This document shows positions 29,405 to 48,803 of a stretch of DNA of 64,000 bases, piece by piece. The DNA comes from Candidatus Leptovillus affinis (GTDB lineage: Bacteria; Chloroflexota; Anaerolineae; Promineifilales; Promineifilaceae). Position numbers and translations under genes: made by a program. The DNA is taken from positions 190,067-254,066 of the forward strand of contig JADIYP010000005.1 of the NCBI GenBank assembly GCA_016705235.1. The letters are read 5' to 3'. Positions within the stretch are counted from its first letter, which is position 1, and each line of letters opens with the position of its first letter. Below the pieces are notes generated by a model. That model was not told the DNA's origin, ran no database searches, and saw only the letters and a program-made list of their open reading frames with translations.

Positions 29405-29638
29405 ATGAGTAAAGGTTTAGCCAGAGCCGAACGATTGCGCCAATTAGAGAAGAAGTATTTGTATGGTGCGTTCAACGACGAAGAAATGGCAGCGGCGATG
29501 GGCGTCGAAAGCCGAATTACCATCTACAAAGACCGTCAGTTGTTGCTGAAGAACGGTGTGCCTTTTGTGGAGACAGAACGAGGCCGCTGGAAGATTGATC
29601 GCCAAAAATACGTCTCGGAACTGCGGGTGAATGCATGA
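29405..29638 (+). CDS. HTH N-terminal fragment of a WYL-type regulator (split or frameshifted)
   Basis: EEMAAAMGVESRITIYKDRQLLLKNGVPF is HTH-like. The ORF ends at 29638 and overlaps the WYL ORF by 8 nt in another frame. Confidence 0.55.
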   Translation: MSKGLARAERLRQLEKKYLYGAFNDEEMAAAMGVESRITIYKDRQLLLKNGVPFVETERGRWKIDRQKYVSELRVNA

Positions 29639-30434: not shown

Positions 30435-30794
30435 TCATTTTGCCGATTTCACGCGAATTTTGCGATCTGTGACCACGACAAGACAACCAGACCACTGCGC
30501 TACCGCTTCGCTGGTGAAGATCACTTCAACTTTCTGGATCAACTGTCGGCGAGTGGGGTTGTTGAGACGGAGCAACAAAACACCATGATGTGTACCGGGC
30601 TTGAAGTGCTGAACATTCGAGAAATCAAGGTCTTGGGTGATCAAAAAGCGATTCTCTGCTTGAGCCGCCTGCCAAACCTGATCATCATCCGCCCCGTCAA
30701 GATTTTCTTCCGGGACCGTTTCGGCATCATGCCCAAGCTGGCGCAGCATAACCGCCAATTCAACCGGCAGATTTTCATCCAGCTTGATCTGCAT
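30435..30794 (-). CDS. DUF5615 / Mut7-C-like PIN-fold putative toxin
   Basis: MQIKLDENLPVELAVMLRQLGHDAETV...DDDQVWQAAQAENRFLITQDLDF. Confidence 0.7.
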   Translation of the reverse strand: MQIKLDENLPVELAVMLRQLGHDAETVPEENLDGADDDQVWQAAQAENRFLITQDLDFSNVQHFKPGTHHGVLLLRLNNPTRRQLIQKVEVIFTSEAVAQWSGCLVVVTDRKIRVKSAK

Positions 30795-30796
30795 GG

Positions 30797-31030
30797 TTAT
30801 ACCGCCAGAACCATCGCTGGTATATCTTCGGCCGCAGAGTCAGCCGCAAAGGCAATCAAGGCCCAGATCGCTTCTTCAGTCAGTGTGGGAAAGCTGTGCA
30901 GAATGTCTTCCACACGGTCGCCTTCGGCCAGACTGCCTAAGATGGTGCGGATGGGGATACGGGTGCCTTTGACAACGGCCGTTCCGCCACAGATTTTAGG
31001 GTCGCGCACAATATAGTTTGTATAGTCCAT
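30797..31030 (-). CDS. DUF433 putative antitoxin
   Basis: IVRDPKICGGTAVVKGTRIPIRTILGSLAEGDRVEDILHSFPTLTEEAIWALIAFA. It lies 2 nt upstream of the DUF5615 gene. Confidence 0.75.
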   Translation of the reverse strand: MDYTNYIVRDPKICGGTAVVKGTRIPIRTILGSLAEGDRVEDILHSFPTLTEEAIWALIAFAADSAAEDIPAMVLAV

Positions 31031-31066: not shown

Positions 31067-33544
31067 ATGTCAAAACCGTATGTCTATCAACAGCAAGTTC
31101 AAGAAGCTCTGTTGCAAGGTCAAAATATCATCCTGCAAGCACCCACCGGGGCCGGCAAAACCCGCGCCGCGCTAACCCCATTTCTGGATACATTTTGGGA
31201 TGCGTCAGCCAGTGTCTTTCCTAAAAAGTGCGTTTACATTGTGCCCATGCGTGTCCTGGCAAATCAATTCACCGAAGAGGTACGCAAAAAAGCAGCGCGA
31301 TACGAACGTATCTATAAACGCCAACTTAACGTGGGACGACAAACTGGCGAATATAGGGAAGACCCCGAATTTCGCGCCGCCATTACCTTTGCCACCATTG
31401 ATCAGGTGTTGAGCAGTTGGCTGATGCACCCGTACAGCCTGTCGGCGCGGAAGGGAAACCTGAATACTGGCGCGTTTGTCGGTAGTTACCTAATTTTTGA
31501 TGAGTTCCACCTTTTCGATCCCGATTCTATGCTGCCAACAACGCTACATATGCTGAAAACCCTAAAAGGCGTAAGCCCTTTTGTGTTGATGACGGCGACC
31601 TTTTCTCAGGAAATGTTGCAAGAACTGGCGCAGGAATTGGGGGCAACGGCCGTTCTCCTTTCGCCCGACGATCTACAAAAGATCCCTTCGCAGCACAAAA
31701 CGCGCACCTTCCATACGGTAGACCGGCCTTTGGTAGGTGACGATGACGTATTCATTGACCAGATTGTGGCTGCGCACCTGGCACAAGAATCAGATGACCA
31801 GCGGTCTCTGGTGGTGTGTAACCAGGTAGAACGAGCGCAACGTGTGTATCAGGCATTGACGCGACATCCTGACCTGACCGATGTTACCGTGCGCCTGCTG
31901 CACAGCCGCTTTTTGCGTGCAGACCGGCAAAAGATTGAGGCAGAAATCCGGCGCGAGTTCAATAAAGAGCGGGCACAGCATACGCAGCGCAGCATGATTT
32001 TGGTAGGTACACAGGTAGTGGAAGTAGGATTGGATATGAGCAGCCGCGCTTTACATACGGAACTGGCTCCGGCAGCGGCCGTTTTGCAGCGGGCGGGGCG
32101 ATGTGCGCGGTATGAAGGGGAAGAAGGCCATGTGTATGTCTACCGCCTAGAACCGGAAAGTTATGCGCCGTACCACAACCGTTATGCCGCTGAACAATGC
32201 GACCTGACCTGGGAATGGCTGCAAACCCATCAAGACCACCACCTTTCTTTCCAGGATGAACAAGCCCTCATCAACCATGCCCACACGCCATCAGACCGTA
32301 ATATCCTCAAAGGACTAAAAGCAGGTGAACTGGACCATGAACGTGAAATCTACGTAATCTGGCGCGGTGATGGCAATCGTGGCGAGGCGCAAAAGCTGAT
32401 ACGCAACATTCAGGCAGTGTCCATTGTTGTTCACCCTGAACCAGACAAACTGGTTTCTGCGCCTTTCAAAGTTGAGAGCTTCTCCCTTTTTCCCGGCACG
32501 TTACATGGCAAATTCAAGGAGTGGCAAAAACACAATAATGCTACCGATGAATTTTTCGATGAAGGCCATTTAGAATGGTTGATCCGAAGGCTTGAGGAGC
32601 TGCCGGACAGTGAAGAAGACGCGCAAGGAAATCAGGTGGTGCGTTATGGTTTCAAAGATGTAACATCGTCGGCTGCTTTGCATGGGCCGCTGTTTGCTGT
32701 TAATCCAGCGTTGGTCGGTTATACGCCGGAGATGGGATTAACTTTATATCCGGGAGCGCCGTATACATGTTCAACGCCAGAGCAAGACAAAGGCGCAGCA
32801 GCGCAAAGTCCGGCACATAGTTCCAGGTTAGAAAGCTACTGTCGGCATATCGAACTGGTACATGAAGCCTTTCGGGATGATTTTTTACGGCCGTTAGCCC
32901 AAAGCGCCGTTCGCCTGGAAAAGGCATTTAGCTGGTCGCCAGGCATTATCGCCGAAACAGCCCATCTGGTTATTTGCCTGCATGACGTGGGCAAACTCAA
33001 CAACCAGTGGCAGCAGTGGGTGCGGAACTGGCAAAAACAAACGGGGCAGGTATATGAAAAAGATGGCGTTTACGCCCATTGGGACGGAGATGGTTCGGAA
33101 ACCCACCGGACGCTGGAACGAAAGCTAAAAAGGCAGCGCCCCCACCACGCGATTGAAGGGGCCATCGCCAGTATTCCTTTGCTGGAGGCTGTTATTCCCG
33201 AAAGCTGCGAACCACTTCTTCGAGCGGCGTTCACGGCCGTTGCCCGCCATCATACCACCTTTGCCAGCGAGGCAAGCAATTATCGCTTGATCCCTACGTA
33301 TCGGGCAGAGATAGACAAGACGCTGCAATTGCCACAAGTGCCGGTTACTTTATTCACAAAATGCCAGGGCGTGCCAATTGAAGATCGCATTGAGGCGAAT
33401 TTGCCTTTACAAAGAGAATTACAGGAGAACTATTTTATTCGTGAGACGAATCAGGAAGATATGTGCAGCTATATGCTTTTGGTGCGGGCTTTGCGTCTGG
33501 CCGACCAAAAAGGGACGGAACGCGGTTCACGGGACGCGAGTTAA
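31067..33544 (+). CDS. cas3: Cas3 helicase with a C-terminal HD nuclease domain
   Basis: Motif I ILQAPTGAGKTRAAL and motif II LIFDEFHLFD, with helicase C motifs. The HD-type residues lie only near the C-terminus (LVICLHDVGKLNNQW, ...RHHTTF). Confidence 0.85.
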   Translation: MSKPYVYQQQVQEALLQGQNIILQAPTGAGKTRAALTPFLDTFWDASASVFPKKCVYIVPMRVLANQFTEEVRKKAARYERIYKRQLNVGRQTGEYREDPEFRAAITFATIDQVLSSWLMHPYSLSARKGNLNTGAFVGSYLIFDEFHLFDPDSMLPTTLHMLKTLKGVSPFVLMTATFSQEMLQELAQELGATAVLLSPDDLQKIPSQHKTRTFHTVDRPLVGDDDVFIDQIVAAHLAQESDDQRSLVVCNQVERAQRVYQALTRHPDLTDVTVRLLHSRFLRADRQKIEAEIRREFNKERAQHTQRSMILVGTQVVEVGLDMSSRALHTELAPAAAVLQRAGRCARYEGEEGHVYVYRLEPESYAPYHNRYAAEQCDLTWEWLQTHQDHHLSFQDEQALINHAHTPSDRNILKGLKAGELDHEREIYVIWRGDGNRGEAQKLIRNIQAVSIVVHPEPDKLVSAPFKVESFSLFPGTLHGKFKEWQKHNNATDEFFDEGHLEWLIRRLEELPDSEEDAQGNQVVRYGFKDVTSSAALHGPLFAVNPALVGYTPEMGLTLYPGAPYTCSTPEQDKGAAAQSPAHSSRLESYCRHIELVHEAFRDDFLRPLAQSAVRLEKAFSWSPGIIAETAHLVICLHDVGKLNNQWQQWVRNWQKQTGQVYEKDGVYAHWDGDGSETHRTLERKLKRQRPHHAIEGAIASIPLLEAVIPESCEPLLRAAFTAVARHHTTFASEASNYRLIPTYRAEIDKTLQLPQVPVTLFTKCQGVPIEDRIEANLPLQRELQENYFIRETNQEDMCSYMLLVRALRLADQKGTERGSRDAS

Positions 33545-33931
33545 GCCAGCCATTTGCTCAATATGATGATCGAAAGAGAAAACGGCCGTTACCCCCATTT
33601 GCTGCGCCAGCGCCAACAAAGAGCAATCGGGGTAGCTCCAATCCTTATCGGCGTAACGGCTAAAAAGCGACCAGATGACTTGACGCATGTCATCGGTCAA
33701 AGGAACAAGCTGAAATTGGGCGCTTGCCTGAATGCTTTCACCCAATTGAATCGCTTGCCTGCTGCCCAAACGCGCCTTAATCAGCGTCATAGTTTCGGCA
33801 AAGATGAATTCTGGGATGAAGAAAACAGCCTCTCTGTTAGCCAGGGCAAACTGTTTGGCGACCGGATGAAACCTATCTTTGGCGTTCAACAGCGCCAGAA
33901 ACGCGCCAGAATCAATAATGAATTGGGGCAT
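33527..33931 (-). CDS. vapC: PIN-domain toxin VapC
   Basis: MPQFIIDSGAFLALLNAKDRFH...FSFDHHIEQM is PIN-type. It overlaps the cas3 3' end by 18 nt on the opposite strand. Confidence 0.8.
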   Translation of the reverse strand: MPQFIIDSGAFLALLNAKDRFHPVAKQFALANREAVFFIPEFIFAETMTLIKARLGSRQAIQLGESIQASAQFQLVPLTDDMRQVIWSLFSRYADKDWSYPDCSLLALAQQMGVTAVFSFDHHIEQMAGLTRVP

Positions 33932-33933
33932 AA

Positions 33934-34260
33934 TTATGACGACTTGTTGTTGATCCGCACGGCCTGCCCGTCACTACCCCGACGATACCTTTGGGGCGCA
34001 ATTTCCCAGGCGTGCAACTCCTGCGCTTCCGCGCTCATCATGTCCGCCAACAAATATAAATCTGGGTCCTGGCTGACAGGAATGCCATCAATCAACGGTT
34101 TTTCGCTGCTGAATGCACCAATGAGATCAAAAACGGGATCGGTTATCTCTACCTCACTGCGCTCAATGTGCAGCCGAACCCGCGTCCGGTTGGGCAGTTT
34201 AAGCGGGGTTAACGGCCGTAATACCCCATTTTCATATACGGCCGTAATTATTTCGCTCAT
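33934..34260 (-). CDS. Antitoxin (AF2212/DUF104-like N-terminus) paired with VapC
   Basis: MSEIITAVYENGVLRPLTPLKLPNRTRVRLHIE. It lies 2 nt upstream of vapC. I prefer the ATG at 34260 to the one at 34284. Confidence 0.7.
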   Translation of the reverse strand: MSEIITAVYENGVLRPLTPLKLPNRTRVRLHIERSEVEITDPVFDLIGAFSSEKPLIDGIPVSQDPDLYLLADMMSAEAQELHAWEIAPQRYRRGSDGQAVRINNKSS

Positions 34261-34344
34261 GATCTGTCTCCCGTTCCATAACATCCAGTACTCTCTAATG
34301 AGTCTGATTCCATATTCTGGAATTAACGTTATGAAAACAATAAT

Positions 34345-34368
34345 GTTTCAGTAATCTCTGGCGATTCT
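34345..34368 (-). repeat. Orphan CRISPR half-repeat (24 nt identical to the 3' two-thirds of the repeat, minus-strand orientation)
   Basis: The plus strand reads GTTTCAGTAATCTCTGGCGATTCT, the reverse complement of AGAATCGCCAGAGATTACTGAAAC. It lies 5' of the vapB-like gene on the minus strand and about 45 nt upstream of the putative Cascade promoter on the plus strand. Confidence 0.9.
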
Positions 34369-34410
34369 GCTTCTACAACACAGACTTAACGTACAAGAGC
34401 ATTGTATCGC

Positions 34411-34439
34411 TTGACAGGAAAAAGGCAATCGTTTATTCT
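34411..34439 (+). promoter_or_regulatory. Sigma70-like promoter candidate for the cas8-cas7-cas5 operon (TTGACA - 17 nt - TATTCT)
   Basis: Read directly in the AT-rich gap upstream of cas8. Not validated. Confidence 0.3.
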
Positions 34440-34468
34440 TTCATCATCACTTTAATATAAAAACTATA

Positions 34469-34711
34469 ATGGGAAAAAAATTAAACGATATGAGCGAAAT
34501 TTTACAAGAACACGATGTCTGTCAATCATATGAAACGCTTGTTGAATCCATTTATCAATCACGAATAACGCTTAACGAATTGGTGAGCGCCGATTTAACA
34601 TTGCACCCACCGATTATTATATACATTATGCGGGATGTTCGTGGCTGTGTAAAGTCGCTTATGCCTTATCTGGAGCAACTTTCAGCGCACATGGAGGATG
34701 CGTATGAGTAA
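34469..34711 (+). CDS. Hypothetical small protein upstream of and overlapping the cas8-like gene
   Basis: 80-aa ORF that looks more AT-rich by eye than its neighbours, has no clear Shine-Dalgarno and matches no family I recognise. It may not be expressed. Confidence 0.25.
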   Translation: MGKKLNDMSEILQEHDVCQSYETLVESIYQSRITLNELVSADLTLHPPIIIYIMRDVRGCVKSLMPYLEQLSAHMEDAYE

Positions 34712-36530
34712 CAACCATTTTATCATAGACAAAATCACGGGTACGTTCGCAGATGATTTGCTCGCTGCCGGTTTCATGGCTGTGTTAGATAACCTGTATC
34801 GTCGGCAGGTCGGCATAGCCAATATGACACAAGTGGATTGTGGTCATTATTATCAGATAATGGCCGATGCGCCGTTAGACTTGGAAAAGGTGCAGCGCGA
34901 GGCTGAATTTTTTATCGGCGCAAGATTCCTGCGTACCGAGGGCAATAAAGACAAATTGCCAACCGGCTTACCCGAAGCATACTTTGTGGATTACAAAGAA
35001 AAACGGGATGAGCGCAACGCTTTTTTCGATGCCCTGAACACTTTAGAAAAAACGGTGAGTAAGGCGTATTGGCGCGGCGACGAAGAGGTGCTGGCTTATT
35101 TGCCCACACCCCCTGATCGCCACTACGACATTTACCGGATGATGAACAGCCCAACAACGCTCATTGGCTACACGCGGCTGGTGAATCAGTGGGTGCAGGT
35201 GGGGGAAAGCGGCCGTACCGGTGACGTGTGTTACCTGTTGTGCCAGATGTTCAGCAGCGATGCAGACGGCCGTTATCAGCCCAACGATGTGGCAGCGGCC
35301 GTCGCCGCCTGGAAAGACATTGCCAAAACCGAGCAATGGCCGCTAAATGACACAATCACAACCGCCAGCCAGGTTCTCAATCCGGCGCAAGGCAAAGGCG
35401 TCAACCGTCCTAAGCCGGATGGGGTATCTCCCACAAATCTATCTGGCTTTTGGTTGTTAGAGTGGCTTAAACTGGTCGGCTTTTACCAGATCGGGTTAAC
35501 GGCCGTGCTGCGCGACAGTAGCGACCGCAAAACCTATGTCCCCGCCGCCGGACGCATGACCATCCGCACCCGCGAGCAGATCGACATCCGCTTTCGTAAC
35601 CTTACCCGCGCCAACGAAAGCGCCACCCGCGCCGACATCCTCACCGTGCTGCAATACCTTAGAGCATTCATCCGCGTTACCAGGGAAGCCCAAGAGCAGC
35701 CCGACATGCCCCAACTGCGCTTTAGCCGCCACCGTTCGGTCCGCCCCGCCGACTTCATTCATGGCTTCCACGTCGCCTTTTATAAGAATTTGGGTAACGC
35801 GGCGGCCGTCATGAACATGGCCTTTCTTAATTTGCCCGGTTGGGTACAAATCCATAATGCGGACGAAGCCCAACAATTTCTGGACATTTTGGACGAACAC
35901 GCCGGCATCGTCCGGCAGTTTGCCGAAAACAAAGGCGACGAACTTGATCTCCTCGGCCAATACCGTGACTTCGTTGTCGCCGACAATCTGGACCCATTTT
36001 TTGAATTCAATACTGCCTACAGCAGTTGGCTAATCAGCGCCGGGGAGAAGCCAGGCTTCCCACCGCGTAAATTTTCCACCCACAATTTAAGGAGGTTACT
36101 TGTGAGCGTACAACATGATTTAAGTGACATTGTAGAATCGCCCGGTTTCATTAATATTGCTCGCGCTATTCGTGAAAGCACAGTTCGGGCACAGTACCGT
36201 AAGAACCAAAAGAATGATAAACGGTACACCGTTCGCTACGGTTTGGGGCGTGATTTGGTGCGCAAAGCGTATCACCGCGAAGAATTTGTCGCCGCTCTTA
36301 GCGAATTCTTGCTGACTTATAACGCTGAAAATGCTCAGGTTTTAGAGCGTTATCCAAAAGACAAATACCCCCAATATAAATATCGGTGGGATGTTCAGAC
36401 GGGCGACATTAAAGATATTTTGTCTCTAATAGACAAGTATTCCAATCCCCCCGATCTTATCGCCAAACTACTGGTGGCTTATGGGTATGCAAGTGATTAT
36501 CAAGCCAAAAGCGAGGAGGAAGCCGAATGA
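34704..36530 (+). CDS. Cas8-like large Cascade subunit (positional call; possibly Cmx8/DevT/Cst1-like)
   Basis: About 608 aa, the first gene of the effector operon, immediately before the cas7 and cas5 genes. GGAGG lies 6 nt before the ATG at 34704. I can name no diagnostic motif. Confidence 0.55.
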   Translation: MSNNHFIIDKITGTFADDLLAAGFMAVLDNLYRRQVGIANMTQVDCGHYYQIMADAPLDLEKVQREAEFFIGARFLRTEGNKDKLPTGLPEAYFVDYKEKRDERNAFFDALNTLEKTVSKAYWRGDEEVLAYLPTPPDRHYDIYRMMNSPTTLIGYTRLVNQWVQVGESGRTGDVCYLLCQMFSSDADGRYQPNDVAAAVAAWKDIAKTEQWPLNDTITTASQVLNPAQGKGVNRPKPDGVSPTNLSGFWLLEWLKLVGFYQIGLTAVLRDSSDRKTYVPAAGRMTIRTREQIDIRFRNLTRANESATRADILTVLQYLRAFIRVTREAQEQPDMPQLRFSRHRSVRPADFIHGFHVAFYKNLGNAAAVMNMAFLNLPGWVQIHNADEAQQFLDILDEHAGIVRQFAENKGDELDLLGQYRDFVVADNLDPFFEFNTAYSSWLISAGEKPGFPPRKFSTHNLRRLLVSVQHDLSDIVESPGFINIARAIRESTVRAQYRKNQKNDKRYTVRYGLGRDLVRKAYHREEFVAALSEFLLTYNAENAQVLERYPKDKYPQYKYRWDVQTGDIKDILSLIDKYSNPPDLIAKLLVAYGYASDYQAKSEEEAE

Positions 36531-36739
36531 AACGCACGGCCGTTTCCTCCAGCAATCTCGCTTCAGTTGGTTACGATCCCGCCAGCCAATCTCTGGAAAT
36601 CGAGTTTACAACGGGTCGGGTTTATGAATACTTTGATGTTCCCCAACAAACCTATGACAAGTTGATGGCGGCTGAGTCACACGGCCGTTACTTCAATGCC
36701 TATATTCGTGACAATTACCATTACACAAGAATTCGATAA
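36527..36739 (+). CDS. KTSC-domain protein embedded in the Cascade operon
   Basis: SSNLASVGYDPASQSLEIEFTTGRVYEYFDVPQQTYDKLMAAESHGRYFNAYIRDNYHYTRI matches the KTSC (lysyl-tRNA synthetase C-terminal-like) domain pattern. Its start overlaps the cas8 stop (ATGA). Confidence 0.75.
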   Translation: MKRTAVSSSNLASVGYDPASQSLEIEFTTGRVYEYFDVPQQTYDKLMAAESHGRYFNAYIRDNYHYTRIR

Positions 36740-36751
36740 GGAGAACTAACC

Positions 36752-37729
36752 GTGTCCATTTATTCCATTTCCCTCTCTGCCCAACTCACCCTGGATATGC
36801 ACAGCCTCAACAACGAAGGCGGCGAAGGCAACCAGATTCAAACCCGCATGGTCAACATCGTGGATGGCAACGGCCGTTTGCAAAACGTCAATGCCATCTC
36901 CGGCGACATGATTAAGCACATCCTGGCCGAGCATCTGCACCGCATTGCTACCGCCAACGGCCTGCCCCTATGCGCCGGTTGTAAAACCTTTAATGCCAAC
37001 CGCATCAGCGCCGATGAAAGCTACATGGCCGCCATCGCCAACATGAACGACGCCGACTCGTTAACATTGATGCTGGAAACATGCGCTATGGATGATATGC
37101 TGGGCAACCTGATCACGGCCGGTTCCAAATCTTTGCCGCGCAAATCGGTGGTTGAGTTTGGATGGGTGGTCGGTTTGCCCGAACTGACCCGTTCCGATAG
37201 CTATTTTCACGTCAAGTATTCCAACGAACGGGGAAAAGCTGAACGAGATGCCCAAAAAGGCGAAGAATCACGCGGGGCAAATTTGGGGCAAGCCATCTTC
37301 CATCGGCCGGCCAACAGCGGCGTGTACGCCCTGGTTGCTACCATCGAAGCGGCGCGTATTGGCTTCAACGACATTACGCAGAAATATGTGTTAGATGAAG
37401 CCCAACGACAGGCGCGATTGAAAGCCTTGCTCGAAGCCCTTCTCTACACCCTCATGGAACCGGCCGGAGCCATGCGCGGCACTCAAGCCCCCCACATCGT
37501 AGACGTGGCCGGGGTGATCACCGTCAGCCAAAACGTCATTCCCGCGCCCACCCTCAGCCCGCTCAAAGGAGGGTACGATCAGGAATTAACCGACCTGTGC
37601 GCGACGCTGAACAGCATTCGGCCCAACGCTCTGGCAGCCCACTCCTTCAGTTCAATGAACGGCTACGCCCAAACCGTGCGCGACCTCATCCAAAGTGCCA
37701 CGCCGTACACGTTGCAATATGCAGGTTGA
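36752..37729 (+). CDS. cas7: Cas7 backbone subunit, DevR/Cst2/Csa2 type
   Basis: SISLSAQLTLDMHSLNNEGGEGNQIQTRMVNIVDGNGRLQNVNAISGDMIKHILAEHL is the DevR-family signature. A GTG start follows AAGGAG. Confidence 0.85.
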   Translation: MSIYSISLSAQLTLDMHSLNNEGGEGNQIQTRMVNIVDGNGRLQNVNAISGDMIKHILAEHLHRIATANGLPLCAGCKTFNANRISADESYMAAIANMNDADSLTLMLETCAMDDMLGNLITAGSKSLPRKSVVEFGWVVGLPELTRSDSYFHVKYSNERGKAERDAQKGEESRGANLGQAIFHRPANSGVYALVATIEAARIGFNDITQKYVLDEAQRQARLKALLEALLYTLMEPAGAMRGTQAPHIVDVAGVITVSQNVIPAPTLSPLKGGYDQELTDLCATLNSIRPNALAAHSFSSMNGYAQTVRDLIQSATPYTLQYAG

Positions 37730-37733
37730 AGCA

Positions 37734-37766
37734 AGATTGGTTCAATCTTTAAGATTGAACCAATCT
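37734..37766. repeat. Double palindrome AGATTGGTTCAATCT-TTA-AGATTGAACCAATCT between cas7 and cas5
   Basis: Read directly in the sequence. Same family as 20761, 26200 and 56461. Confidence 0.7.
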
Positions 37767-37794
37767 CCCGACCTGCCCATGCGAGTGAATAACC

Positions 37795-38484
37795 ATGATA
37801 TGGATACAAGCAATTTACCAGCCGACCACCCTGTTTAGCTTACGGCCGTCCTGGACAACCTCATCCGGGGGTAAAAGTCTGCTGCTGCCGTCGCCTTACG
37901 CGCTGAAAACGGCCGTTCTCGACGCCGCCATTCGCACCAGTGGTTTGGGGCAAGCCGAGCAAGCCTGGCCCTGGATACGCGACATGGGCATCGGCGTGCA
38001 ACTACCGCCACAAATCGTCGTCACCAACCTGTTCGCCAAAATTCTGCGCCTGCGCCGCAATCCGGCTACACCCGGTTCTGCTGATGTTGGCCCTTTCCAG
38101 AAAACCATCGCCTATCGCGAATATGTCTACCATCCACAACCGATCACCCTGGCTTTTGCTGTCCCCGATGGTCAGGCGGCGCAGCTTGGCGATTGGCTGG
38201 CGCAAATTAGCTATCTGGGCAAGCGCGGCGGCTTTGTGCAACTGTTGGCCCCTCCTATACCCCTGGCCGATAGCGCTGGCTTTGTGTTATTGACAGCCGA
38301 CGTTACCAGCTTCCCCCTCAATGGCCTGGTACAACAGCTAGACGATTGTGATCCGAAGATGAAATTTGTGGAGGCGAACATTTACGACAGCAAAAAGCCA
38401 AAGCGGGTGGTGCGGCATGTGGTCTTACCCTACCGGCTGGCAAAATCCAGCCGCGCCTATTCCCTCTACCAACACACCGGCTAA
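37795..38484 (+). CDS. cas5: Cas5-like Cascade subunit
   Basis: 229 aa, directly after cas7. The N-terminus FSLRPSWTTSSGGKSLLLPSPYALKTAVLDAAIR fits the Cas5 RAMP N-terminal pattern. The call is mainly positional. Confidence 0.55.
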   Translation: MIWIQAIYQPTTLFSLRPSWTTSSGGKSLLLPSPYALKTAVLDAAIRTSGLGQAEQAWPWIRDMGIGVQLPPQIVVTNLFAKILRLRRNPATPGSADVGPFQKTIAYREYVYHPQPITLAFAVPDGQAAQLGDWLAQISYLGKRGGFVQLLAPPIPLADSAGFVLLTADVTSFPLNGLVQQLDDCDPKMKFVEANIYDSKKPKRVVRHVVLPYRLAKSSRAYSLYQHTG

Positions 38485-38544
38485 ACAAAACGGCCGTTGG
38501 TTGCCCTCACCAACGGCCGTTACCATACAACCTGCCAATGAAAA

Positions 38545-38847
38545 CTAAACCGTCTCATGCACAAGCACATCCCGCTCAATTTGCGCGCCCACCTCATCTT
38601 GCGCCACGTCCAGATCGTAGTCAAGTTGCAGGCCAAGCCAGAATTGCGCCGATGTGCCAAAAAATCGCGCTAAACGCAAAGCCGTATCGGCCGTAATCCG
38701 TCGCCGACCATGAATGATCTCATTAATCCGTCGCGTCGGCACACGCATCGCCAGAGCGAGTTTGTTCTGGCTAATATCCATTGGCAGCAAAAATTCTTCC
38801 AACAAGACTTCACCCGGATGTAATGGAGGTATTTTATTATTCGCCAT
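38545..38847 (-). CDS. higA: HigA antitoxin (XRE-family HTH)
   Basis: HPGEVLLEEFLLPMDISQNKLALAMRVPTRRINEIIHGRRRITADTALRLARFFGTSAQFWLGLQLDYDL. Confidence 0.85.
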   Translation of the reverse strand: MANNKIPPLHPGEVLLEEFLLPMDISQNKLALAMRVPTRRINEIIHGRRRITADTALRLARFFGTSAQFWLGLQLDYDLDVAQDEVGAQIERDVLVHETV

Positions 38848-38899
38848 TTCAGCACCTTCTTAAGCTAATTGTGCTGAAACACAGGTTAATACTATCAGT

Positions 38900-38922
38900 G
38901 TTTCAGTAATCTCTGGCGATTC
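38900..38922 (-). repeat. Orphan CRISPR half-repeat (23 nt identical to the 3' part of the repeat, minus-strand orientation) between higB and higA
   Basis: The plus strand reads GTTTCAGTAATCTCTGGCGATTC. Adjacent CTGAAACAC (38873..38881) can pair with GTGTTTCAG (38898..38906). Confidence 0.9.
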
Positions 38923-38956
38923 AAGCTGACTCGAAATGAATCAACTAGACACTGAT

Positions 38957-39238
38957 TTAATGATAATCAACAATTTCTACAGCATGGGCATCACCATCGC
39001 GCCATTCAAAACAGATTCGCCATTGTTGATTGACCCGAATGCTATATTGGCCCGCTCGATCACCATGCAATTGCTCCAATCGGTTACTCGGCGGTATGCG
39101 CAAATCGTCCAAAGAGACCGCCCGATTGAGCATACGAAGTTTCCGAAATGCGCGTTGTTGAATATCTTGAGGCAGCTTACGAGAAAATTCTCGATGAAAA
39201 ATCCTTTCTGCTTCCCGATCCCGAAAGTTGCGAATCAT
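38957..39238 (-). CDS. higB: HigB toxin (RelE/ParE superfamily, plasmid maintenance killer type)
   Basis: MIRNFRDREAERIF...LDDLRIPPSNRLEQLHGDRAGQYSIRVNQQWRICFEWRDGDAHAVEIVDYH. Confidence 0.85.
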   Translation of the reverse strand: MIRNFRDREAERIFHREFSRKLPQDIQQRAFRKLRMLNRAVSLDDLRIPPSNRLEQLHGDRAGQYSIRVNQQWRICFEWRDGDAHAVEIVDYH

Positions 39239-39330
39239 GATTGTACCTCATTCACCCAATTGTATAACCTTGCGCGTTAAACGCAAAGTGTTATATTAGG
39301 GACGAGATTATTTCCAGCAAATCAACCAAC

Positions 39331-40359
39331 ATGACCAACCTACAACTCACCCACCTTCGCTTCGACTGCACCGCCACCACACCCATCAAAATGGGCAGCC
39401 ATTACGCCGGTAACAACCTGCGCAACGCCCTCGCCAACGTCATGCGCCGCGCCACCTGCCCCGAATACCGCACCAATCGCCCGCCCGAACCCGCCCACGC
39501 AGCCACCTGCCCCGCCTGCTGGCTGCTCTCGGCCAACCTCGACCCTGGCACCGTCATCCGCGCCTACGCCGTCGCGCCACCCCTCCCGCCCCGCAGCTAC
39601 CTCCAAGCCGGTGAGCGCTTCAGCTTCGCCCTCACCCTCTTCGGCGACGGCTTCCACTACCTGCCCTACGTCGTCCTGGCCGCCAACGAGGCCGGACAAA
39701 GCGAAGGCATTGGCCCAGGCCGGCGCGAAGGGCTGGGCCGATTTGCCGTGGACAGGATAACGGCCGTAGACCCCCTGCGCGGCGACATGCAATCTTGCCT
39801 GGCCCCCGGCGACGCCTTCGTGACTGTACCCAATCTGTTTGTAGACGAAACGGCCGTGCGCCACATCAGCCAGATGCACCACCAAGCCCTCAACGGCCGT
39901 CATCTCACCCTTCACTTCCTCACCCCCACGCGGCTGGAAGAGAAAGGGCAGCTCTACAAACTGCCTGATTTCTCCGTCCTCTTCCGGCGCTTGCTCTACC
40001 GCATAGACGAATTGGGCCGCCAGTTTGCCGGGCAAGAGCGGCGCGATCCAGCCGAGGTGGCCCATCTTCACGCCCTGGCCGACAGCGTGCGCCTGGTAGA
40101 TGCGCAAACCGACTGGCAAGAAATGTGGGTCTACTCCGGGCGCAAGGGCGAGAAAACGCCCTTGAGCGGCTTTACCGGCACGGCCGTCTACCGCAGCGAC
40201 GATTGGACCGAGCTGCTGCCCTGGCTGGTATGGGGTCAGGCGACCCACGTCGGAAAATCAGTTGTCAAGGGCAACGGCGTCTACGAATTAGGGGGTGGAA
40301 ACTGGCCTCCCTACTGGGATTGGCTGCGCGCCGACCACCTGTGGGAAGCTGCGACCTGA
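39331..40359 (+). CDS. cas6: Cas6-like crRNA endoribonuclease (large, MYXAN/Cmx6-like)
   Basis: It lies immediately upstream of the array leader. The C-terminal glycine-rich loop HVGKSVVKGNGVY fits the Cas6 G-h-G-x5-G-h-G pattern. It has a Cys-rich insert, CPEY...CPACW. Confidence 0.6.
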   Translation: MTNLQLTHLRFDCTATTPIKMGSHYAGNNLRNALANVMRRATCPEYRTNRPPEPAHAATCPACWLLSANLDPGTVIRAYAVAPPLPPRSYLQAGERFSFALTLFGDGFHYLPYVVLAANEAGQSEGIGPGRREGLGRFAVDRITAVDPLRGDMQSCLAPGDAFVTVPNLFVDETAVRHISQMHHQALNGRHLTLHFLTPTRLEEKGQLYKLPDFSVLFRRLLYRIDELGRQFAGQERRDPAEVAHLHALADSVRLVDAQTDWQEMWVYSGRKGEKTPLSGFTGTAVYRSDDWTELLPWLVWGQATHVGKSVVKGNGVYELGGGNWPPYWDWLRADHLWEAAT

Positions 40360-40531
40360 CCGTCGCAAATCCCCCCTGTTTTGGCGCAAAAACCGATTTG
40401 CGAAAAACGCTCGTTAACAACCACATATTCGGCGAAATTAAGATAAAATAGACCTGCTATAATGGCCTGTAACGGTTAAAACGGCCGTTACAGGCCAAAT
40501 ATGAACCATTAACAATAAAAAACGCGGGCGG
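40360..40531 (+). promoter_or_regulatory. CRISPR leader
   Basis: A 172-nt AT-rich segment between cas6 and the first repeat. TATAAT lies at 40458..40463, followed by the 12-bp inverted repeat GGCCTGTAACGG / CCGTTACAGGCC. Confidence 0.55.
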
Positions 40532-42947
40532 GTCGCCCCACCAGAGAATCGCCAGAGATTACTGAAACACTCGGCCCCAGAGATGCCAGAGATGCACGGT
40601 CGCCCCACCAGAGAATCGCCAGAGATTACTGAAACACTTCTGCCCGGCAGCCATTGCCATGTGCTGTAGCGGACGGTCGCCCCACCAGAGAATCGCCAGA
40701 GATTACTGAAACACAACATGAGGCTTACGGCCGTCAGCTTTCGCTGACATTGGTCGCCCCACCAGAGAATCGCCAGAGATTACTGAAACGCCGTCCGGGT
40801 GGCCCCCCAGAGAATCGCCAGAGATTACTGGAATTGCGGACTCCTGTGAGTTCCCTGCGGTCGCCCCACCAGAGAATCGCCAGAGATTACTGAAACATCT
40901 CCCCAGACGCTCGAATAGTTTCCCTGACCAGGGTCGCCCCACCAGAGAATCGCCAGAGATTACTGAAAACCCCGGGGGGTGAGCGGGGGGAGGGCGCGGG
41001 GGGTCGCCCCACCAGAGAATCGCCAGAGATTACTGAAACACGCGAATCGGCGACCAGCCGCCGACCATCGGGTCGCCCCACCAGAGAATCGCCAGAGATT
41101 ACTCACACGCGCGGGGCGAGGGTCGCCCCACCAGAGAATCGCCAGAGATTACTGAAACTACTTTGGTTTTTCTTCTTGCTTTGGTTGCAGGTCGCCCCAC
41201 CAGAGAATCGCCAGAGATTACTGAAGGGGACCAGAGAATCGCCAGAGATTACTGAAACTGGTGGGTGATGATTGTTGTGTTCATCTCCATGGGCTGGTCG
41301 CCCCACCAGAGAATCGCCAGAGATTACTGAAACACCTGGCAGCCATCGCTTATCGTGTCTGGTTTGGGTCGCCCCACCAGAGAATCGCCAGAGATTACTG
41401 AAACAGACAAAACCCAGGGCCTGTCGCCCCACCAGAGAATGCCAGAGATACGAAAACAAGGTCGCCGCCCCACCAGAGAATCGCCAGAGATTACTGAAAC
41501 ACCGCCTGGCAGCCATCGTGCGCGGCGGGTCGCCCCACCAGAGAATCGCCAGAGATTACTGAAACGACGTCATACGCTGGAACGACAAAGGCAAATTGTA
41601 GGTCGCCCCACCAGAGAATCGCCAGAGATTACTGAAACAGTGTAGTCTAGTGTCGGCCAGCTTTTGCGCGTCGGTCGCCCCACCAGAGAATCGCCAGAGA
41701 TTACTGAAAACGGATTGCAGCATGCGGCACGCACCGTTCCCGCTGGGTCGCCCCACCAGAGAATCGCCAGAGATTACTGAAACGCTGACCACGCACTTTG
41801 CGCCGATATCGTCGAGGTCGCCCCACCAGAGAATCGCCAGAGATTACTGAAACGCCGGCGGGGTGGGTTGGCTGGGCTGCGCTTAGAAGGTCGCCCCACC
41901 AGAGAATCGCCAGAGATTACTGAAACTGGAGCTTAATTTTATATCGGCCGGCCAGCCGTTGGGTCGCCCCACCAGAGAATCGCCAGAGATTACTGAAACT
42001 CTGGAGGTCGCCTCCCGGCCACAGAGCAAAGGAGGAGGTCGCCCCACCAGAGAATCGCCAGAGATTACTGAAACACAATAAGAGGGGCGACTGGCAATTT
42101 TACGTGCCGCGTCGCCCCACCAGAGAATCGCCAGAGATTACTGAAACCGACTTTGACGGCATCCATTTTGACGGCTCGCCAAGGTCGCCCCACCAGAGAA
42201 TCGCCAGAGATTACTGAAACGTAACCGAAGCCATAGAAACCAACACACCCAGAAGTCGCCCCACCAGAGAATCGCCAGAGATTACTGAAACAGATAACGT
42301 CAGGCATGTGGCAGGCCGGGCACCAGGTCGCCCCACCAGAGAATCGCCAGAGATTACTGAAACAGAATCATAGCGCCGCAGCCGCCCAGCAGCATGGCCG
42401 TCGCCCCACCAGAGAATCGCCAGAGATTACTGAAACATTTGGTCTTAATCGTTTTGGCGAACTGGCCAAAGTCGCCCCACCAGAGAATCGCCAGAGATTA
42501 CTGAAACACCAGTGGCAAGGGTACGATCTTTGGCTGGTCGATACGTCGCCCCACCAGAGAATCGCCAGAGATTACTGAAACGGCACGCCCGGCCCCATTG
42601 GTGGAGCTGGTAGCACAGTCGCCCCACCAGAGAATCGCCAGAGATTACTGAAACACGAAAATCTACTGCTCTAAATCGTGCCGAGTTGCTATAGTCGCCC
42701 CACCAGAGAATCGCCAGAGATTACTGAAACATGTGTGGCTTAAATACAGCCTAGGGTCTGTCCATTGTCGCCCCACCAGAGAATCGCCAGAGATTACTGA
42801 AACGTTACACTCCCCATCGCCCACCATCGTTAACGAAAGTCGCCCCACCAGAGAATCGCCAGAGATTACTGAAACCGCAGCTTGCAACCGACCTTGACGA
42901 ACTGGCAACAGTCGCCCCACCAGAGAATCGCCAGAGATTACAGTGTT
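40532..42947 (+). CRISPR. CRISPR array with about 36 repeat units of 37 nt (GTCGCCCCACCAGAGAATCGCCAGAGATTACTGAAAC); spacers mostly 32-40 nt
   Basis: I delimited every unit by hand. 27 units are canonical and about 9 are variant, partial or degenerate. Most variants fall between 40801 and 41500; the terminal unit at 42911 has a degenerate 3' end. Orientation is inferred from the 3' ...GAAAC and from the leader position. All track ORFs within 40438..43124 are artefacts. Confidence 0.95.
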
Positions 42948-43378
42948 TGATATCGAACGAAACAGTTTGCCCAAATTCTTCTGGCAACCATGCCCGCAGG
43001 CGCTGCACTTGACCATCGAGAAGATTCTGCAACGCTTCATTCGGCAAATCGGCCAGAACACGGCTGAAATGTCGGGAAGTCGGCAAGCTGGATTGGACGT
43101 CAGAGCCAAAGGGATGGCGCCCATCCGGGATGAGCGGAAAGCCAGCCGCCCAAACCAGGGTTGGATAGGCAGCCAGGAAGCGGCGTAACTGCGTCTTGGC
43201 GTTAATTATTGCTCTTTATCAGTCCAACCTGCTACAATGATCCCTGTCCTGGGGGGTCAACGGTGGCAGATATTCGGTATCCCCAGACACAAATTTCAAA
43301 CGGAACCGCTCCATAAATTCTTACTTCGTCAGGTTTTGCCACTTTTTTAATTCTGGAAATGTGTTGTTTACTTGACCT

Positions 43379-46117
43379 ATGCCCACTCCAATTTTAGCCA
43401 CCAAACTCTATATCCCCCCACCTCGTCCCAGCATTGTCCCGCGCCCCCGCCTGATCAATCGGCTGAACACCGGGCTGGCAATGGGTGGCAAACTGACGCT
43501 CATCTCCGCTTCTGCCGGCTTTGGCAAGACCACCCTGGTCGGCGAATGGATTGCCCATTGTGATAAGAAAGTGGCCTGGCTGTCGCTAGATGAAGGGGAC
43601 AGCGATCCGATGCGCTTCATCACTTACCTGGTAACAGCCTTACAGACTGTCAAGGCGGGATTTGGCGAAGGGCTGTTGACGGTACTCCAATCCCCTCAGC
43701 CGCCGCAAGCCGAAACCATTTTGACCACCTTGCTCAACGAAATTTCCGTCATCCCCGATCATTTTCTCCTCATCCTCGATGATTACCACGAGATCGATTC
43801 TCAACCAGTAAACCAATCCCTGACCTTCCTCGTCGAACACCAGCCGCCACAGATGCACCTGGTCATCCTCACCCGTGAAGATCCACCGCTACACCTATCC
43901 CGGTTACGCGCTCGTGGCCAACTGACTGAGTTACGCGCCGCCGATTTGCGTTTCACCCCCGCCGAGGCCGCTGAATTTCTCAACCTGATGATGGGACTAA
44001 ATCTCTCCGTAGAAGACATCGCTGCATTGGAAACTCGTACCGAAGGTTGGATCGCCGGCCTACAATTGGCTGCGCTTTCCATGCAGGGTAACAAGGATGT
44101 CTCCGGGTTCATTCGAGAATTCGCCGGAAACCACCGGTACATTGTGGACTATCTGGTCGAAGAGGTTTTGCAAAATCAGCCCGAACCTATCCGCAGATTC
44201 CTACTCCAAACTGCCATTCTCGACCGGTTGAATGGGTCGCTGTGTGATGCCGTCACCGGCAAAGAGGAAGGTGGCGCACGCTTGGAAGCCTTGCAACGAG
44301 GCAACTTCTTTATCATTCCGCTGGATGACAAGCGCAACTGGTATCGCTATCACCATTTTTTTGCCGATGTTCTTCGGATGCACTTAATGGTGGAGCAACC
44401 GGCTGAGGTCGCTGCCCTACACCAACGAGCGAGCGAGTGGTACGAGCACAATGGTTCACCGGACAATGCGATCCGCCATGCGCTGGCCGCCGAGGATTTC
44501 GTGCGATCTGCGAACCTGATCGAGTTGACCATACCCGCCATGAACATTAGCCGGCAGTTTGCCACGATGCTAGGCTGGCTAAAGGCACTACCCGACGAAC
44601 TTGTCCACGTCAGTCCTGTACTCAGTACTGAGTATGCCTTGGCGGCAATGTCTTGTGGCGAGAACGAGGACGTAGAATCCCGACTGCGGGATGCAGAACG
44701 GTGGTTACATAAGACAGCCGACACACGCGAACAACTGGAATCTCAGGGTGCGGGGATGGTCGTGGTGAACAAAGAGGAATTTCGCCGCGTGCCGGGATTG
44801 ATCGCCCTTATCCGTGCCGGCCAAGCCCTGGCTCGGGGTGATATGCCTGAGACCGTAAAAAACGCTCGGCGGGTACTCGATCTCGCGCCTGAGAATGACT
44901 ATTTGATGCTGGGTGGGGCAGCCTCGCAATTGGGACTCGCCGCGTGGACGAGCGGGGATCTCGACGACGCCCGCCGGATGAGTGCCGATGGCATGGCGAA
45001 TATTCGGCTAGCCGGGTACATCTCTCCCGCCATCGGCGGCGCCATTGTCCTGGCGGATATACAGATTGCGCAAGGCTGTCTTCAGGAGGCAATGACCACC
45101 TATGAGCGGGGATTGCAGTGGGCGACGAAGCCGGGTGCGCCAGTGCTGCAAGGCGCGGCGGATATGCACGTGGGCATGAGTACCCTTCACCGTGAGTTTA
45201 ACGATCTGAAAACTGCCACGCAGCACCTGCATACAAGCCAGACTTTGGGAGAGCTTGCCGGTTTACCGCAAAACCCATATCGTTGGTGTGCGGCGATGGC
45301 CCGCATATGGGAGGCTCAAGGCGATCTGGATGGCGCGCTCGACCTGCTCGACCAGGCCGAGCGTTTATACAATAGTAACTTTTCCCCGAATGTGCGTCCG
45401 ATCGCGACACGGAAGACACGGGTGTGGACAGCCCAGGGCCGGTTGGGCGAAGCTCTGGGTTGGGCACGGCAGCAAGGACTGTCTGTTGAAAACGAACTTC
45501 ACTACCTGCGCGAGTTCGATCACATCACCCTGGTCAGGGTACTGCTGGCCTGTTATCAGCAAGACATCGAAGATATTTCCATTGTTGAAGTAGTGGGCCT
45601 ATTGGAGCGTCTGCTAAAACATGCGGAAGAGGGCAGGAGGAAGGGCAGTGCGATTGAAATTCTGACATTGCAAGCACTTGCTTATCATGCTCAAGGCGAT
45701 CTCGCTGCTGCTCTCTTCTCATTACAGCGTGCGCTTATGCTGGCCGAGCCAGAAGGCTACGTCCGCATGTTCCTTGACGAAGGCTCAAGCATGAGGCAAC
45801 TGCTTCACGAAGCTTCCGTGCGTGAAATCATGCCAGATTACACGGACAAGCTATTGGCAGCATTTGAAGCTGAGAAACAGAAAGGCGGCGACAAACCTTC
45901 TCTACCCCATGCCCAGCCCCTTATTGACCCATTGAGCCAACGCGAGTTAGAAATCCTGAAGTTGATTGCCCAGGGACTCTCCAATCGTGCGATTGGCAAG
46001 CGGCTGTTCCTCGCTCTGGACACAATCAAAGGGCATAACCGCAAAATTTTTGACAAACTGCAAGTCCAAAGCCGTACCGAAGCCATCGCCCGTGCCCGCG
46101 AGCTTGGTTTGTTGTAA
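43379..46117 (+). CDS. MalT/LuxR-family large ATP-dependent transcriptional regulator (copy 1)
   Basis: N-terminal P-loop ISASAGFGKTTLV, a long TPR-like middle, and a C-terminal LuxR HTH LSQRELEILKLIAQGLSNRAIGKRLFLALDTIKGHNRKIFDKLQV. Confidence 0.9.
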   Translation: MPTPILATKLYIPPPRPSIVPRPRLINRLNTGLAMGGKLTLISASAGFGKTTLVGEWIAHCDKKVAWLSLDEGDSDPMRFITYLVTALQTVKAGFGEGLLTVLQSPQPPQAETILTTLLNEISVIPDHFLLILDDYHEIDSQPVNQSLTFLVEHQPPQMHLVILTREDPPLHLSRLRARGQLTELRAADLRFTPAEAAEFLNLMMGLNLSVEDIAALETRTEGWIAGLQLAALSMQGNKDVSGFIREFAGNHRYIVDYLVEEVLQNQPEPIRRFLLQTAILDRLNGSLCDAVTGKEEGGARLEALQRGNFFIIPLDDKRNWYRYHHFFADVLRMHLMVEQPAEVAALHQRASEWYEHNGSPDNAIRHALAAEDFVRSANLIELTIPAMNISRQFATMLGWLKALPDELVHVSPVLSTEYALAAMSCGENEDVESRLRDAERWLHKTADTREQLESQGAGMVVVNKEEFRRVPGLIALIRAGQALARGDMPETVKNARRVLDLAPENDYLMLGGAASQLGLAAWTSGDLDDARRMSADGMANIRLAGYISPAIGGAIVLADIQIAQGCLQEAMTTYERGLQWATKPGAPVLQGAADMHVGMSTLHREFNDLKTATQHLHTSQTLGELAGLPQNPYRWCAAMARIWEAQGDLDGALDLLDQAERLYNSNFSPNVRPIATRKTRVWTAQGRLGEALGWARQQGLSVENELHYLREFDHITLVRVLLACYQQDIEDISIVEVVGLLERLLKHAEEGRRKGSAIEILTLQALAYHAQGDLAAALFSLQRALMLAEPEGYVRMFLDEGSSMRQLLHEASVREIMPDYTDKLLAAFEAEKQKGGDKPSLPHAQPLIDPLSQRELEILKLIAQGLSNRAIGKRLFLALDTIKGHNRKIFDKLQVQSRTEAIARARELGLL

Positions 46118-48738: not shown

Positions 48739-48803
48739 TGCGAAGGGTTTCGATCTTCGTTGGGAGGCTTTTTGAATCGTGAGGCGTGTTTTATAATGGT
48801 CCT

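Follow-up and report, generated by a model that had tools for sequence, protein, structure and literature searches.

A solitary CRISPR half repeat, lodged between the toxin and antitoxin genes of a higBA operon at 38900..38922, appears to have been recruited as a switch for higA that responds to Cas6, to translational coupling, or to both, a reading to which we assign a probability of about 0.5. The unit lies in the type I cas locus of a 64,000-nucleotide stretch from Candidatus Leptovillus affinis, a wastewater member of the Chloroflexota; this stretch is referred to here as the window. Judged from comparative sequence analysis and RNA folding, production of the HigA antitoxin is probably wired to Cas6 activity. 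The spacer of about 110 nt that holds the half repeat would then be a riboregulator that sets the amount of HigA, with presumed cleavage by Cas6. Repeat-dependent RNA processing between higB and higA, as the sequence-only reading of this DNA had suggested, is a reasonable proposal.

The cas locus runs along the plus strand, with Cas1 and a WYL regulator upstream of it. Three minus-strand toxin-antitoxin (TA) pairs are interleaved among the cas genes: DUF433/DUF5615 before cas3, AF2212-like/PIN between cas3 and cas8, and HigBA between cas5 and cas6. The main features are as follows.

31067..33544, plus strand: cas3
34469..34711, plus strand: small ORF heading the cas8 operon
34698..36530, plus strand: cas8-like gene
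36752..37729, plus strand: cas7 (DevR/Csa2 family)
37795..38484, plus strand: cas5-like gene
38545..38847, minus strand: higA, antitoxin and HTH repressor, second cistron (TIGR02607, E = 2.8e-32)
38848..38956, minus strand: intercistronic spacer of 109 nt, a conserved structured RNA element with ten variants
38957..39238, minus strand: higB, toxin, first cistron (PF05015 HigB-like toxin, E = 2.4e-21)
39262..39295, strandless: palindrome of 34 bp, TATAAC-N-TTGCGCGTTAAACGCAA-N-GTTATA, between higB and cas6
39331..40359, plus strand: cas6 (PF27225 and PF10040)
40532..42950, plus strand: CRISPR array of about 34 units with the 37-nt repeat GTCGCCCCACCAGAGAATCGCCAGAGATTACTGAAAC

The operon encodes a HigB-family toxin followed by a HigA-family HTH antitoxin, the composition of a type II HigBA module. 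The higB stop codon, TAA, occupies 38957..38959, and a terminator is located after higA. Solved structures are available for relatives of HigA such as P. aeruginosa HigA and P. putida GraA, and a PDB sequence search with Cas6 returned no solved relative. The spacer had been described as unusually long, at 109 nt, with the repeat ending 52 nt before the higA ATG, and comparison bears this out. Among HigB-HigA homologues gathered from genomes and metagenomes, about 75 of about 80 (60-75% identity) have gaps of 3-28 nt and no repeat, while two other HigBA spacers (L063 and L077) hold long unrelated insertions. A search of 33500..41500 against Rfam at permissive thresholds gave no family match.

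The 23-mer GAATCGCCAGAGATTACTGAAAC is found exactly on the minus strand at 38900..38922 and 34345..34367, and about 34 times on the plus strand within the array at 40532..42950. The unit at 38900..38922 on the minus strand was reported to match the last 23 nt of the repeat exactly, and it does, with 23/23 identity. The copy itself is not a chance match: the expected number of copies of this 23-mer is 0.00 (100 shuffles), and the half repeat is kept in ten spacer variants. Outside the array, the window contains no copy of the repeat's 5' half (GTCGCCCCACCAGA...). Within the array, truncated repeats occur at 40812, 41236, and 41423. The half repeat is made up of the following parts.

38900..38922, minus strand: solitary half repeat, consisting of a G, the H1 hairpin, and the 8-nt handle; exact match to the array
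38908..38921, minus strand: H1 hairpin, AAUC-GCCAGA-GAUU, within the half repeat
38900..38907, minus strand: 8-nt handle ACUGAAAC, the end of the half repeat

All 12 related Chloroflexota arrays downstream of cas6 have 37-nt repeats. The 5' 14 nt of these repeats are free to vary, and the 3' 23 nt follow one plan, with a G, a 4-bp stem, a 6-nt loop that usually ends in AGA, and the handle (A/G)CUGAAA(C/G). The stem covaries across the 12 arrays (AAUC/GAUU, AUUC/GAAU, AUCC/GGAU), and the same small hairpin is predicted in the fold of the window repeat. Since the 3' 23 nt form the conserved module of the arrays, the half repeat is precisely the hairpin plus the 8-nt 5' handle, the portion that Cas6 and Cas5 would be expected to read. 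It carries every sequence invariant of a Cas6 substrate of this repeat family (the G, the stem, the AGA-ending loop, the following base, and CUGAAAC).

The orientation of the unit follows from that of the array. Four features indicate plus-strand reading of the array: cas6 points the same way as the arrays, the repeat terminates in GAAAC, the 3' end of the last array repeat is degenerate, and 40440..40531 holds an AT-rich leader containing a TATAAT box. The sibling element at 34345, described below, has a guide-target logic that agrees with this direction. The half repeat is therefore sense-oriented in the higBA mRNA.

The repeat-bearing spacer is confined to the closest lineage, with HigB at least about 77% and HigA at least about 82% identical to the window proteins. 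We recovered ten distinct sequences of this type, 112-128 nt long when counted through the ATG; L001-L010, with identical HigA and essentially identical spacers (one SNP), are uninformative. Every variant with a readable flank has the divergent position beside cas6, and among the loci collected this spacer type was never found away from that gene. In L147, higBA lies between cas6 and cas5 with a spacer of just 21 nt, indicating that the cassette settled there first and gained the repeat-bearing element later. L136 and L137 retain the spacer, higA, and the palindrome, with higB reduced to a 19-codon pseudogene, and L150 and L151 have higA alone beside cas6. These four loci suggest that neutralising HigB is not the only task of HigA in the locus. 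Judged by its sequence conservation, the half repeat is not a chance match, a decaying scar, or a relic.

The relation of the half repeat to the neighbouring array is mixed. Its hairpin is identical to that of the local array in the window, with the same stem in L135, while in L014, L136, and L138 the half-repeat stem is AAUC/GAUU and the local array has AUUC/GAAU. On these alignments, the half repeat travels with the higBA cassette and does not strictly track the local array. The mixed agreement is no proof of Cas6 recognition, and recognition by the resident Cas6 is assumed here. A concern raised at the outset, that higBA cassettes might carry the sequence independently of any CRISPR locus, is thus answered in two parts: the stem can differ from that of the local array (L014, L136, L138), but this type of cassette was never found away from cas6.

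The spacer is predicted to fold into several helices, some of which compete. The sequence-only reading had noted a 9-bp stem overlapping the repeat end; the stem is real and its second arm, GTGTTTCAG, lies at 38898..38906 as claimed, but the first arm was placed one base off, with CTGAAACAC located at 38874..38882 rather than 38873..38881. The elements of the fold are listed below.

38949..38956, minus strand: 5' strand of P1, AUCAGUGU, starting 1 nt after the higB stop and pairing with 38894..38901
38924..38946, minus strand: H0 hairpin, just upstream of the half repeat, found in the MFE fold and by RNAalifold
38898..38906, minus strand: element A, the handle arm of H2, CUGAAACAC, pairing with element B
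38894..38901, minus strand: 3' strand of P1, ACACUGAU, overlapping the last bases of the handle
38871..38882, minus strand: element B, the anti-handle, GUGUUUCAGCAC, able to pair with element A or element C
38845..38855, minus strand: element C, GUGCUGAAAUG, handle-like and ending in the higA start codon

We applied RNAalifold and pair counts to nine spacer variants. RNAalifold predicts H0, H1, and H2, the last formed by the handle CUGAAACAC and the downstream anti-handle GUGUUUCAG. In H1, 100% of cells are paired, with two covarying pairs (AAUC/GAUU, AUUC/GAAU, ACCC/GGGU). H2 is 98.8% paired and shows two G-U pairs and one compensatory change, from U-A to G-C in L014, where the handle CGGAAAC faces the anti-handle GUUUCCG. 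P1 is 92% paired with two covarying pairs (AU/GC and CG/UA) across nine sequences, and H0 is 88% paired with two pairs changed on both sides. The observed pairing and covariation were reached by 0/500 shuffles, and slid registers were 24-51% paired; the covariation counts come from 9-10 related sequences, whose kinship inflates the shuffle statistics, and the helix statistics from nine related sequences are supportive rather than conclusive.

Further features of the alignment indicate how these helices may be used. P1 and H2 share four alignment columns (columns 56-59 of alignment A7) and are therefore mutually exclusive; P1 is absent in L014 and doubtful in L054 and L145. The G-U pairs would be C-A mismatches on the opposite strand, which identifies the sense RNA of higBA as the molecule that folds. 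The loop between the arms of H2 measures 15-24 nt and varies in sequence across the variants, which speaks against both a protein operator and a guide. Mutations of the handle in L014 (CGGAAAC) and L136 (CUGAGAC) suggest that pairing with B outweighs the identity of the handle. Element C, located just downstream of the Shine-Dalgarno sequence AAGAAGG, is nearly invariant across the variants. Its sequence looks like the 3' end of related repeats (..AGAGAAUGCUGAAAC), and the stretch immediately before it looks like a repeat loop. Together, these two resemblances indicate that the whole spacer may derive from an inserted repeat-spacer-repeat unit.

The two alternative pairings of element B are predicted to be similar in strength. 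In all nine variants the A:B duplex has a predicted energy of -11.5 to -17.1 kcal/mol and the B:C duplex one of -10.4 to -15.6 kcal/mol. In the window, the minimum free energy fold of the spacer contains P1 and B:C when the spacer is intact and A:B when it is cut at the handle. In a weak test of accessibility, cutting raises the unpaired probability of the region from the Shine-Dalgarno sequence to the AUG in the window (from 0.37-0.40 to 0.50) and in L145 (from 0.21 to 0.54), with no rise in L054 or L134; the cut RNAs of L134 and L135 still favour B:C. The shift between intact and cut folds has the predicted direction in most variants and is small.

These pairings suggest the following mechanism. 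In the intact mRNA, P1 would connect the first bases of the spacer with the last ones of the handle, leaving B free to pair with C and thereby to occlude the higA start region. A cut by Cas6 at the 3' base of H1 would remove the 5' strand of P1; the freed handle could then capture B to form H2, opening the ribosome-binding site and start codon of higA. Such a cut would leave a higA mRNA whose 5'-OH end is capped by a hairpin.

The output of the switch may reach cas6 itself. The 34-bp palindrome at 39262..39295 overlaps the hexamers of both divergent promoters, those of higB and cas6, and is conserved in seven lineages. It is presumed to be the HigA operator. HigA belongs to a family of palindrome-binding repressors, and joint repression of higBA and cas6 is a reasonable inference. 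The amount of HigA, and with it the degree to which higBA and cas6 are repressed via their common palindrome, would track Cas6 activity: if Cas6 were lost or inhibited, HigA would fall, which would free HigB and lift the repression of cas6. We consider it possible, as a tentative extension, that the module is a protein-based counterpart of CreTA, a Cas6-gated switch in which HigA needs the Cas6 cut and represses higBA and cas6. If true, such a counterpart would set HigB free and derepress cas6 whenever deletion, anti-CRISPR proteins, or decoy RNAs removed or inhibited Cas6, and would in this way both guard the cas6 gene and detect attacks on crRNA processing.

The same RNA architecture might operate through translational coupling only, with no role for Cas6. 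A ribosome terminating at the higB stop would melt P1, the handle would pair with the anti-handle, and the higA start would open; an old mini-CRISPR fragment would have broken the usual stop/start coupling, its repeat-like hairpin being kept as a structural spacer, and P1, H2, and B:C would have evolved afterwards to restore coupling across the long spacer. The higB stop is followed 1 nt later by the 5' strand of P1, within the footprint of a terminating ribosome, so the ribosome alone could work the switch without Cas6. Coupling also accommodates the difference between the hairpin and the local array in three loci, the tolerance of handle mutations where pairing with B is preserved, and the unrelated insertions that make up the other long spacers of the family (L063, L077). 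It leaves unexplained the repeat invariants (the NNNAGA loop, the G, and CUGAAAC) in ten variants, the restriction of this spacer type to the neighbourhood of cas6, and the retention of the spacer in L136 and L137, where higB is translated for 19 codons at most. We regard coupling on its own as rather unlikely, though a serious rival; the Cas6 trigger and the terminating-ribosome trigger are not mutually exclusive. A decoy or load sensor, in which the unit binds Cas6 (and perhaps Cas5) and buffers free Cas6 while HigA is unaffected, would be in keeping with the handle being held in a conserved stem and with solitary repeat units that bind Cas6 and Cas7 elsewhere (Racr RNAs, PMC10651486); in one variant of this idea, the anti-handle exists solely to block assembly of Cascade on the mRNA. 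One copy set against about 34 array repeats would give little buffering capacity, and neither the handle-like sequence over the higA start nor the conserved B:C pairing is accounted for, which makes a decoy improbable.

The remaining explanations fare worse against the alignment. In a guide of the CreA/CreR type, the half repeat would supply the handle and the downstream sequence would direct Cascade to repress a promoter. This framework is established (PMC8501985; 10.1101/2023.03.10.532045; 10.1101/2023.03.03.530964), and the sibling at 34282..34367 works in this way by the logic of its sequence. At 38900, however, no second Cas6 hairpin with handle follows the unit, only the handle-like GCUGAAAU over the higA start, the length (15-24 nt loop) and sequence of the spacer-like part differ between variants, and the handle is paired to the anti-handle. 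A target search with the 38900 guide in the window and eight related loci gave best seed matches of 8-9/10, equal to those of shuffled guides, with no consistent PAM, and we rejected the guide model for this unit, which we consider very improbable, on the grounds of these shuffled-level matches. A functionless recombination scar left by rearrangement of the cas locus would fit the recombinogenic nature of repeats (10.1101/2023.03.03.530964) and the truncated repeats inside the array, which show that partial repeats arise readily. It is hard to credit in view of ten diverged variants that keep the piece with compensatory changes while the flanking loops diverge freely, and of the identical truncation point in all of them. 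The last possibility places the function in the DNA, with the 9-bp inverted repeat, which is perfect, serving as an operator for HigA or as part of an internal higA promoter. Internal higA promoters are known in some higBA systems. Here, the spacing of the arms ranges from 15 to 24 bp among variants, which is unsuited to a dimeric HTH site, G-U pairs preserve the stem at the RNA level alone, and a better operator candidate lies upstream of higB. A scan of 38400..39400 found one sigma-70-like site upstream of higA, a weak 9/12 match over the start codon. We rejected the internal promoter or operator model, a most unlikely one, because of this single weak site and the variable arm spacing.

Ectopic CRISPR repeats make guide RNAs through which Cascade represses cas genes or RNA toxins. 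A survey by Shmakov et al. 2023 (10.1101/2023.03.03.530964) found an enrichment of repeat-like sequences near cas6 in I-B loci. The 38900 element fits the known class of standalone repeat units in cas loci. Like the units described in 10.1101/2023.03.03.530964, it is an intergenic, conserved, repeat-like sequence in a type I cas locus, beside TA genes; it matches its own repeat over at least 16 nt, lies outside the array, and in ten variants is always found between higB and higA beside cas6. Those standalone units are guides with spacers matching the promoters of cas genes or cargo, whereas no target was detected for the 38900 unit, which sits between the cistrons of a protein TA pair and belongs to an mRNA structure with several helices.

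In CreTA, CreT is an RNA toxin and CreA a guide with which Cascade represses the CreT promoter. The likeness lies in a repeat-derived element within a type I cas operon that ties a toxin system to Cas proteins (PMC8501985, PMC9458426), in the addiction to cas genes that would be expected, and in the preserved handle part, as in psiR1 of creA. In contrast to CreTA, HigB and HigA are both proteins, no guide target site was found, and the proposed link is Cas6 acting on mRNA rather than Cascade acting on DNA. CreR elements are degenerate mini-CRISPRs that autorepress cas genes (10.1101/2023.03.10.532045), a description that the sibling at 34282..34367 fits by its sequence. The higBA element would exert a comparable feedback on cas6 if HigA represses that gene, but the 38900 unit is without a second hairpin or target, and any feedback would pass through a protein repressor. 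As in Racr RNAs (PMC10651486), a single unit imitates the repeat of the host and would be expected to bind Cas6; Racrs are borne by viruses and plasmids and inhibit immunity, whereas the 38900 unit is chromosomal and inside the cas locus. The degenerate hairpin-handle motif GAWTCNNNAGAGAWTNCTGAAAC had 0 matches in 2.9 million viral contigs, indicating that there is no phage-borne counterpart among them.

With canonical HigBA systems, the operon shares the toxin-first order, the PF05015 and TIGR02607 families, and a palindromic operator candidate upstream of higB. It differs from them in its long, repeat-derived, structured spacer, which measures 109-128 nt in this lineage, and in a putative operator held in common with the cas6 promoter. 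Cleavage of an intercistronic hairpin by Cas6 separates the mRNAs and resets the 5' UTR of the downstream one. Qi et al. 2012 are said to have decoupled genes with engineered Csy4 (Cas6f) hairpins placed between cistrons. Those hairpins are synthetic; the higBA spacer, if our reading is true, would be a natural counterpart with an alternative-pairing switch added. The literature that we searched, including a 2025 review of TA-CRISPR coupling, describes neither a repeat unit that separates the two genes of a type II TA operon nor Cas6 processing of such an mRNA. If the Cas6-responsive switch is confirmed, a CRISPR repeat would serve as a Cas6 processing or binding site within a protein-coding mRNA rather than as a guide, an example of natural Cas6-controlled translation. 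The regulated module would be an ordinary type II TA system whose repressor also occupies the cas6 promoter, and through it the cas locus would punish loss or inhibition of crRNA processing. At about 110 nt, the spacer would also be a small and portable RNA part with which to place genes under the control of Cas6.

The second exact copy of the 23-mer belongs to an element of another kind, composed as follows.

34282..34367, minus strand: sibling mini-CRISPR, consisting of psiR1, a spacer-like part, and psiR2
34345..34367, minus strand: psiR1, the exact 23-mer copy
34282..34304, minus strand: psiR2, GACTCATTAGAGAGTACTGGATG, a degenerate hairpin-handle unit 40 nt after psiR1
34456..34470: target of the sibling guide, ATTATAGTTTTTATA, in the 5' UTR of orf80-cas8

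The sibling guide, ATTATTGTTTTCATA, is identical to this target at all ten seed positions and differs from it solely at positions 6 and 12. A CCC precedes the match, whose score was never reached by shuffled guides. The target spans the beginning of the small ORF and lies a short way downstream of a TTGACA-17-TATTCT promoter. By its sequence, the 34345 element is a putative CreR-like mini-CRISPR: it has the seed match and the CCC that mark CreA and CreR guides, features that the 38900 unit lacks.

The sequence-only reading had argued from the same arrangement in two TA families, with the same repeat fragment in front of both antitoxin genes. This argument does not survive, because the 34345 copy is psiR1 of a mini-CRISPR and the same design occurs in L015 free of any TA pair. 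It is undercut further by the vapBC-type cassettes of L012, L019, and L026, in which no half repeat was found on inspection. The companion observation, that no repeat-like copy lies near the third module at 30435..31030, proved correct. Most likely, the position of a half repeat before two TA antitoxins is a coincidence rather than a common mechanism, and the two orphan units at 34345 and 38900 do different jobs. Two identical repeat fragments in one locus can thus serve different mechanisms. In L015, the gap between cas3 and cas8 holds a divergent mini-array followed by a terminator, with no TA gene detected there, and its spacer-like part matches the leader of its own operon next to CCC. A repeat-like unit is also present in the cas3-cas8 gap of L027.

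Within the window, three features concern possible control of the cas genes or a further toxin-antitoxin-like module:

34282..34367, minus strand: two-repeat mini-CRISPR whose first repeat-like unit (psiR1) is the first orphan half repeat; target at 34456..34470
39262..39295: conserved 34-bp palindrome overlapping the divergent higB and cas6 promoters
30435..31030, minus strand: third toxin-antitoxin-like pair, DUF433 and DUF5615 (PIN-like)

The spacer-like part of the mini-CRISPR matches the 5' UTR of the orf80/cas8 operon with a perfect seed and mismatches at positions 6 and 12 only, and this match is flanked by CCC. The related locus L015 follows the same guide-target logic with different sequences. 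Judged from sequence, the element is likely a CreR-type Cas autorepressor, carried in the window on one transcript with the AF2212-like/PIN pair.

The palindrome between higB and cas6 overlaps the promoter hexamers on both strands, TTGCGT-16-TACAAT on the minus strand and TTGCGC-16-TATATT on the plus strand. This arrangement suggests that HigA represses cas6 in addition to higBA.

The higBA cassette beside cas6 varies among related loci. In L136 (3781..4000) and L137, higB is reduced to a 19-codon pseudogene, while higA and the repeat-bearing spacer are retained; in L150 (2313..2773) and L151, higB and the spacer are both missing, and a lone higA adjoins cas6. The cas6-higBA pair and its repeat spacer stay together in L142 to L144 despite neighbouring effector genes that are unrelated to the cas5 and cas7 of the window, and HigA is far better conserved there (88% identity) than Cas6 (52%).

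A further feature was found in the 5' UTR of cas6 in a related locus:

L138, about 3519..3606: repeat-like hairpin ACTC-AAGAGA-GAGT, followed by ACCTGAAT

Here, ACCTGAAT overlaps the cas6 ATG, and the region is identical in sequence in L054. The hairpin is a possible site of Cas6 autoregulation in these two loci; it is absent from the window.

The leader-side third of the array (40532..41500) is irregular: repeats near 40812, 41236, and 41423 are truncated, some repeat ends are variants (GGAAT, CACAC, and GAAGG), and some spacers are short or repeat-like; the remaining array is regular. Terminator-like hairpins formed by the palindrome ACGGCCGT lie after higA/cas5 (38489..38521) and in the array leader (40468..40496), and the motif recurs elsewhere within the window.

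A WYL/WCX regulator and Cas1 (29631..30428, plus strand, and 27543..28586, minus strand) lie directly upstream of cas3. Two other features were recorded:

20850..21040: 78-nt tandem repeat, 2.4 copies at 97% identity, with internal inverted repeats
43379..46117 and 48786..51488: pair of large regulators of the MalT/LuxR type, with AAA_16/NACHT, TPR_MalT, and GerE domains

The tandem repeat is unrelated to the CRISPR repeat, and the two regulators are located directly downstream of the array.
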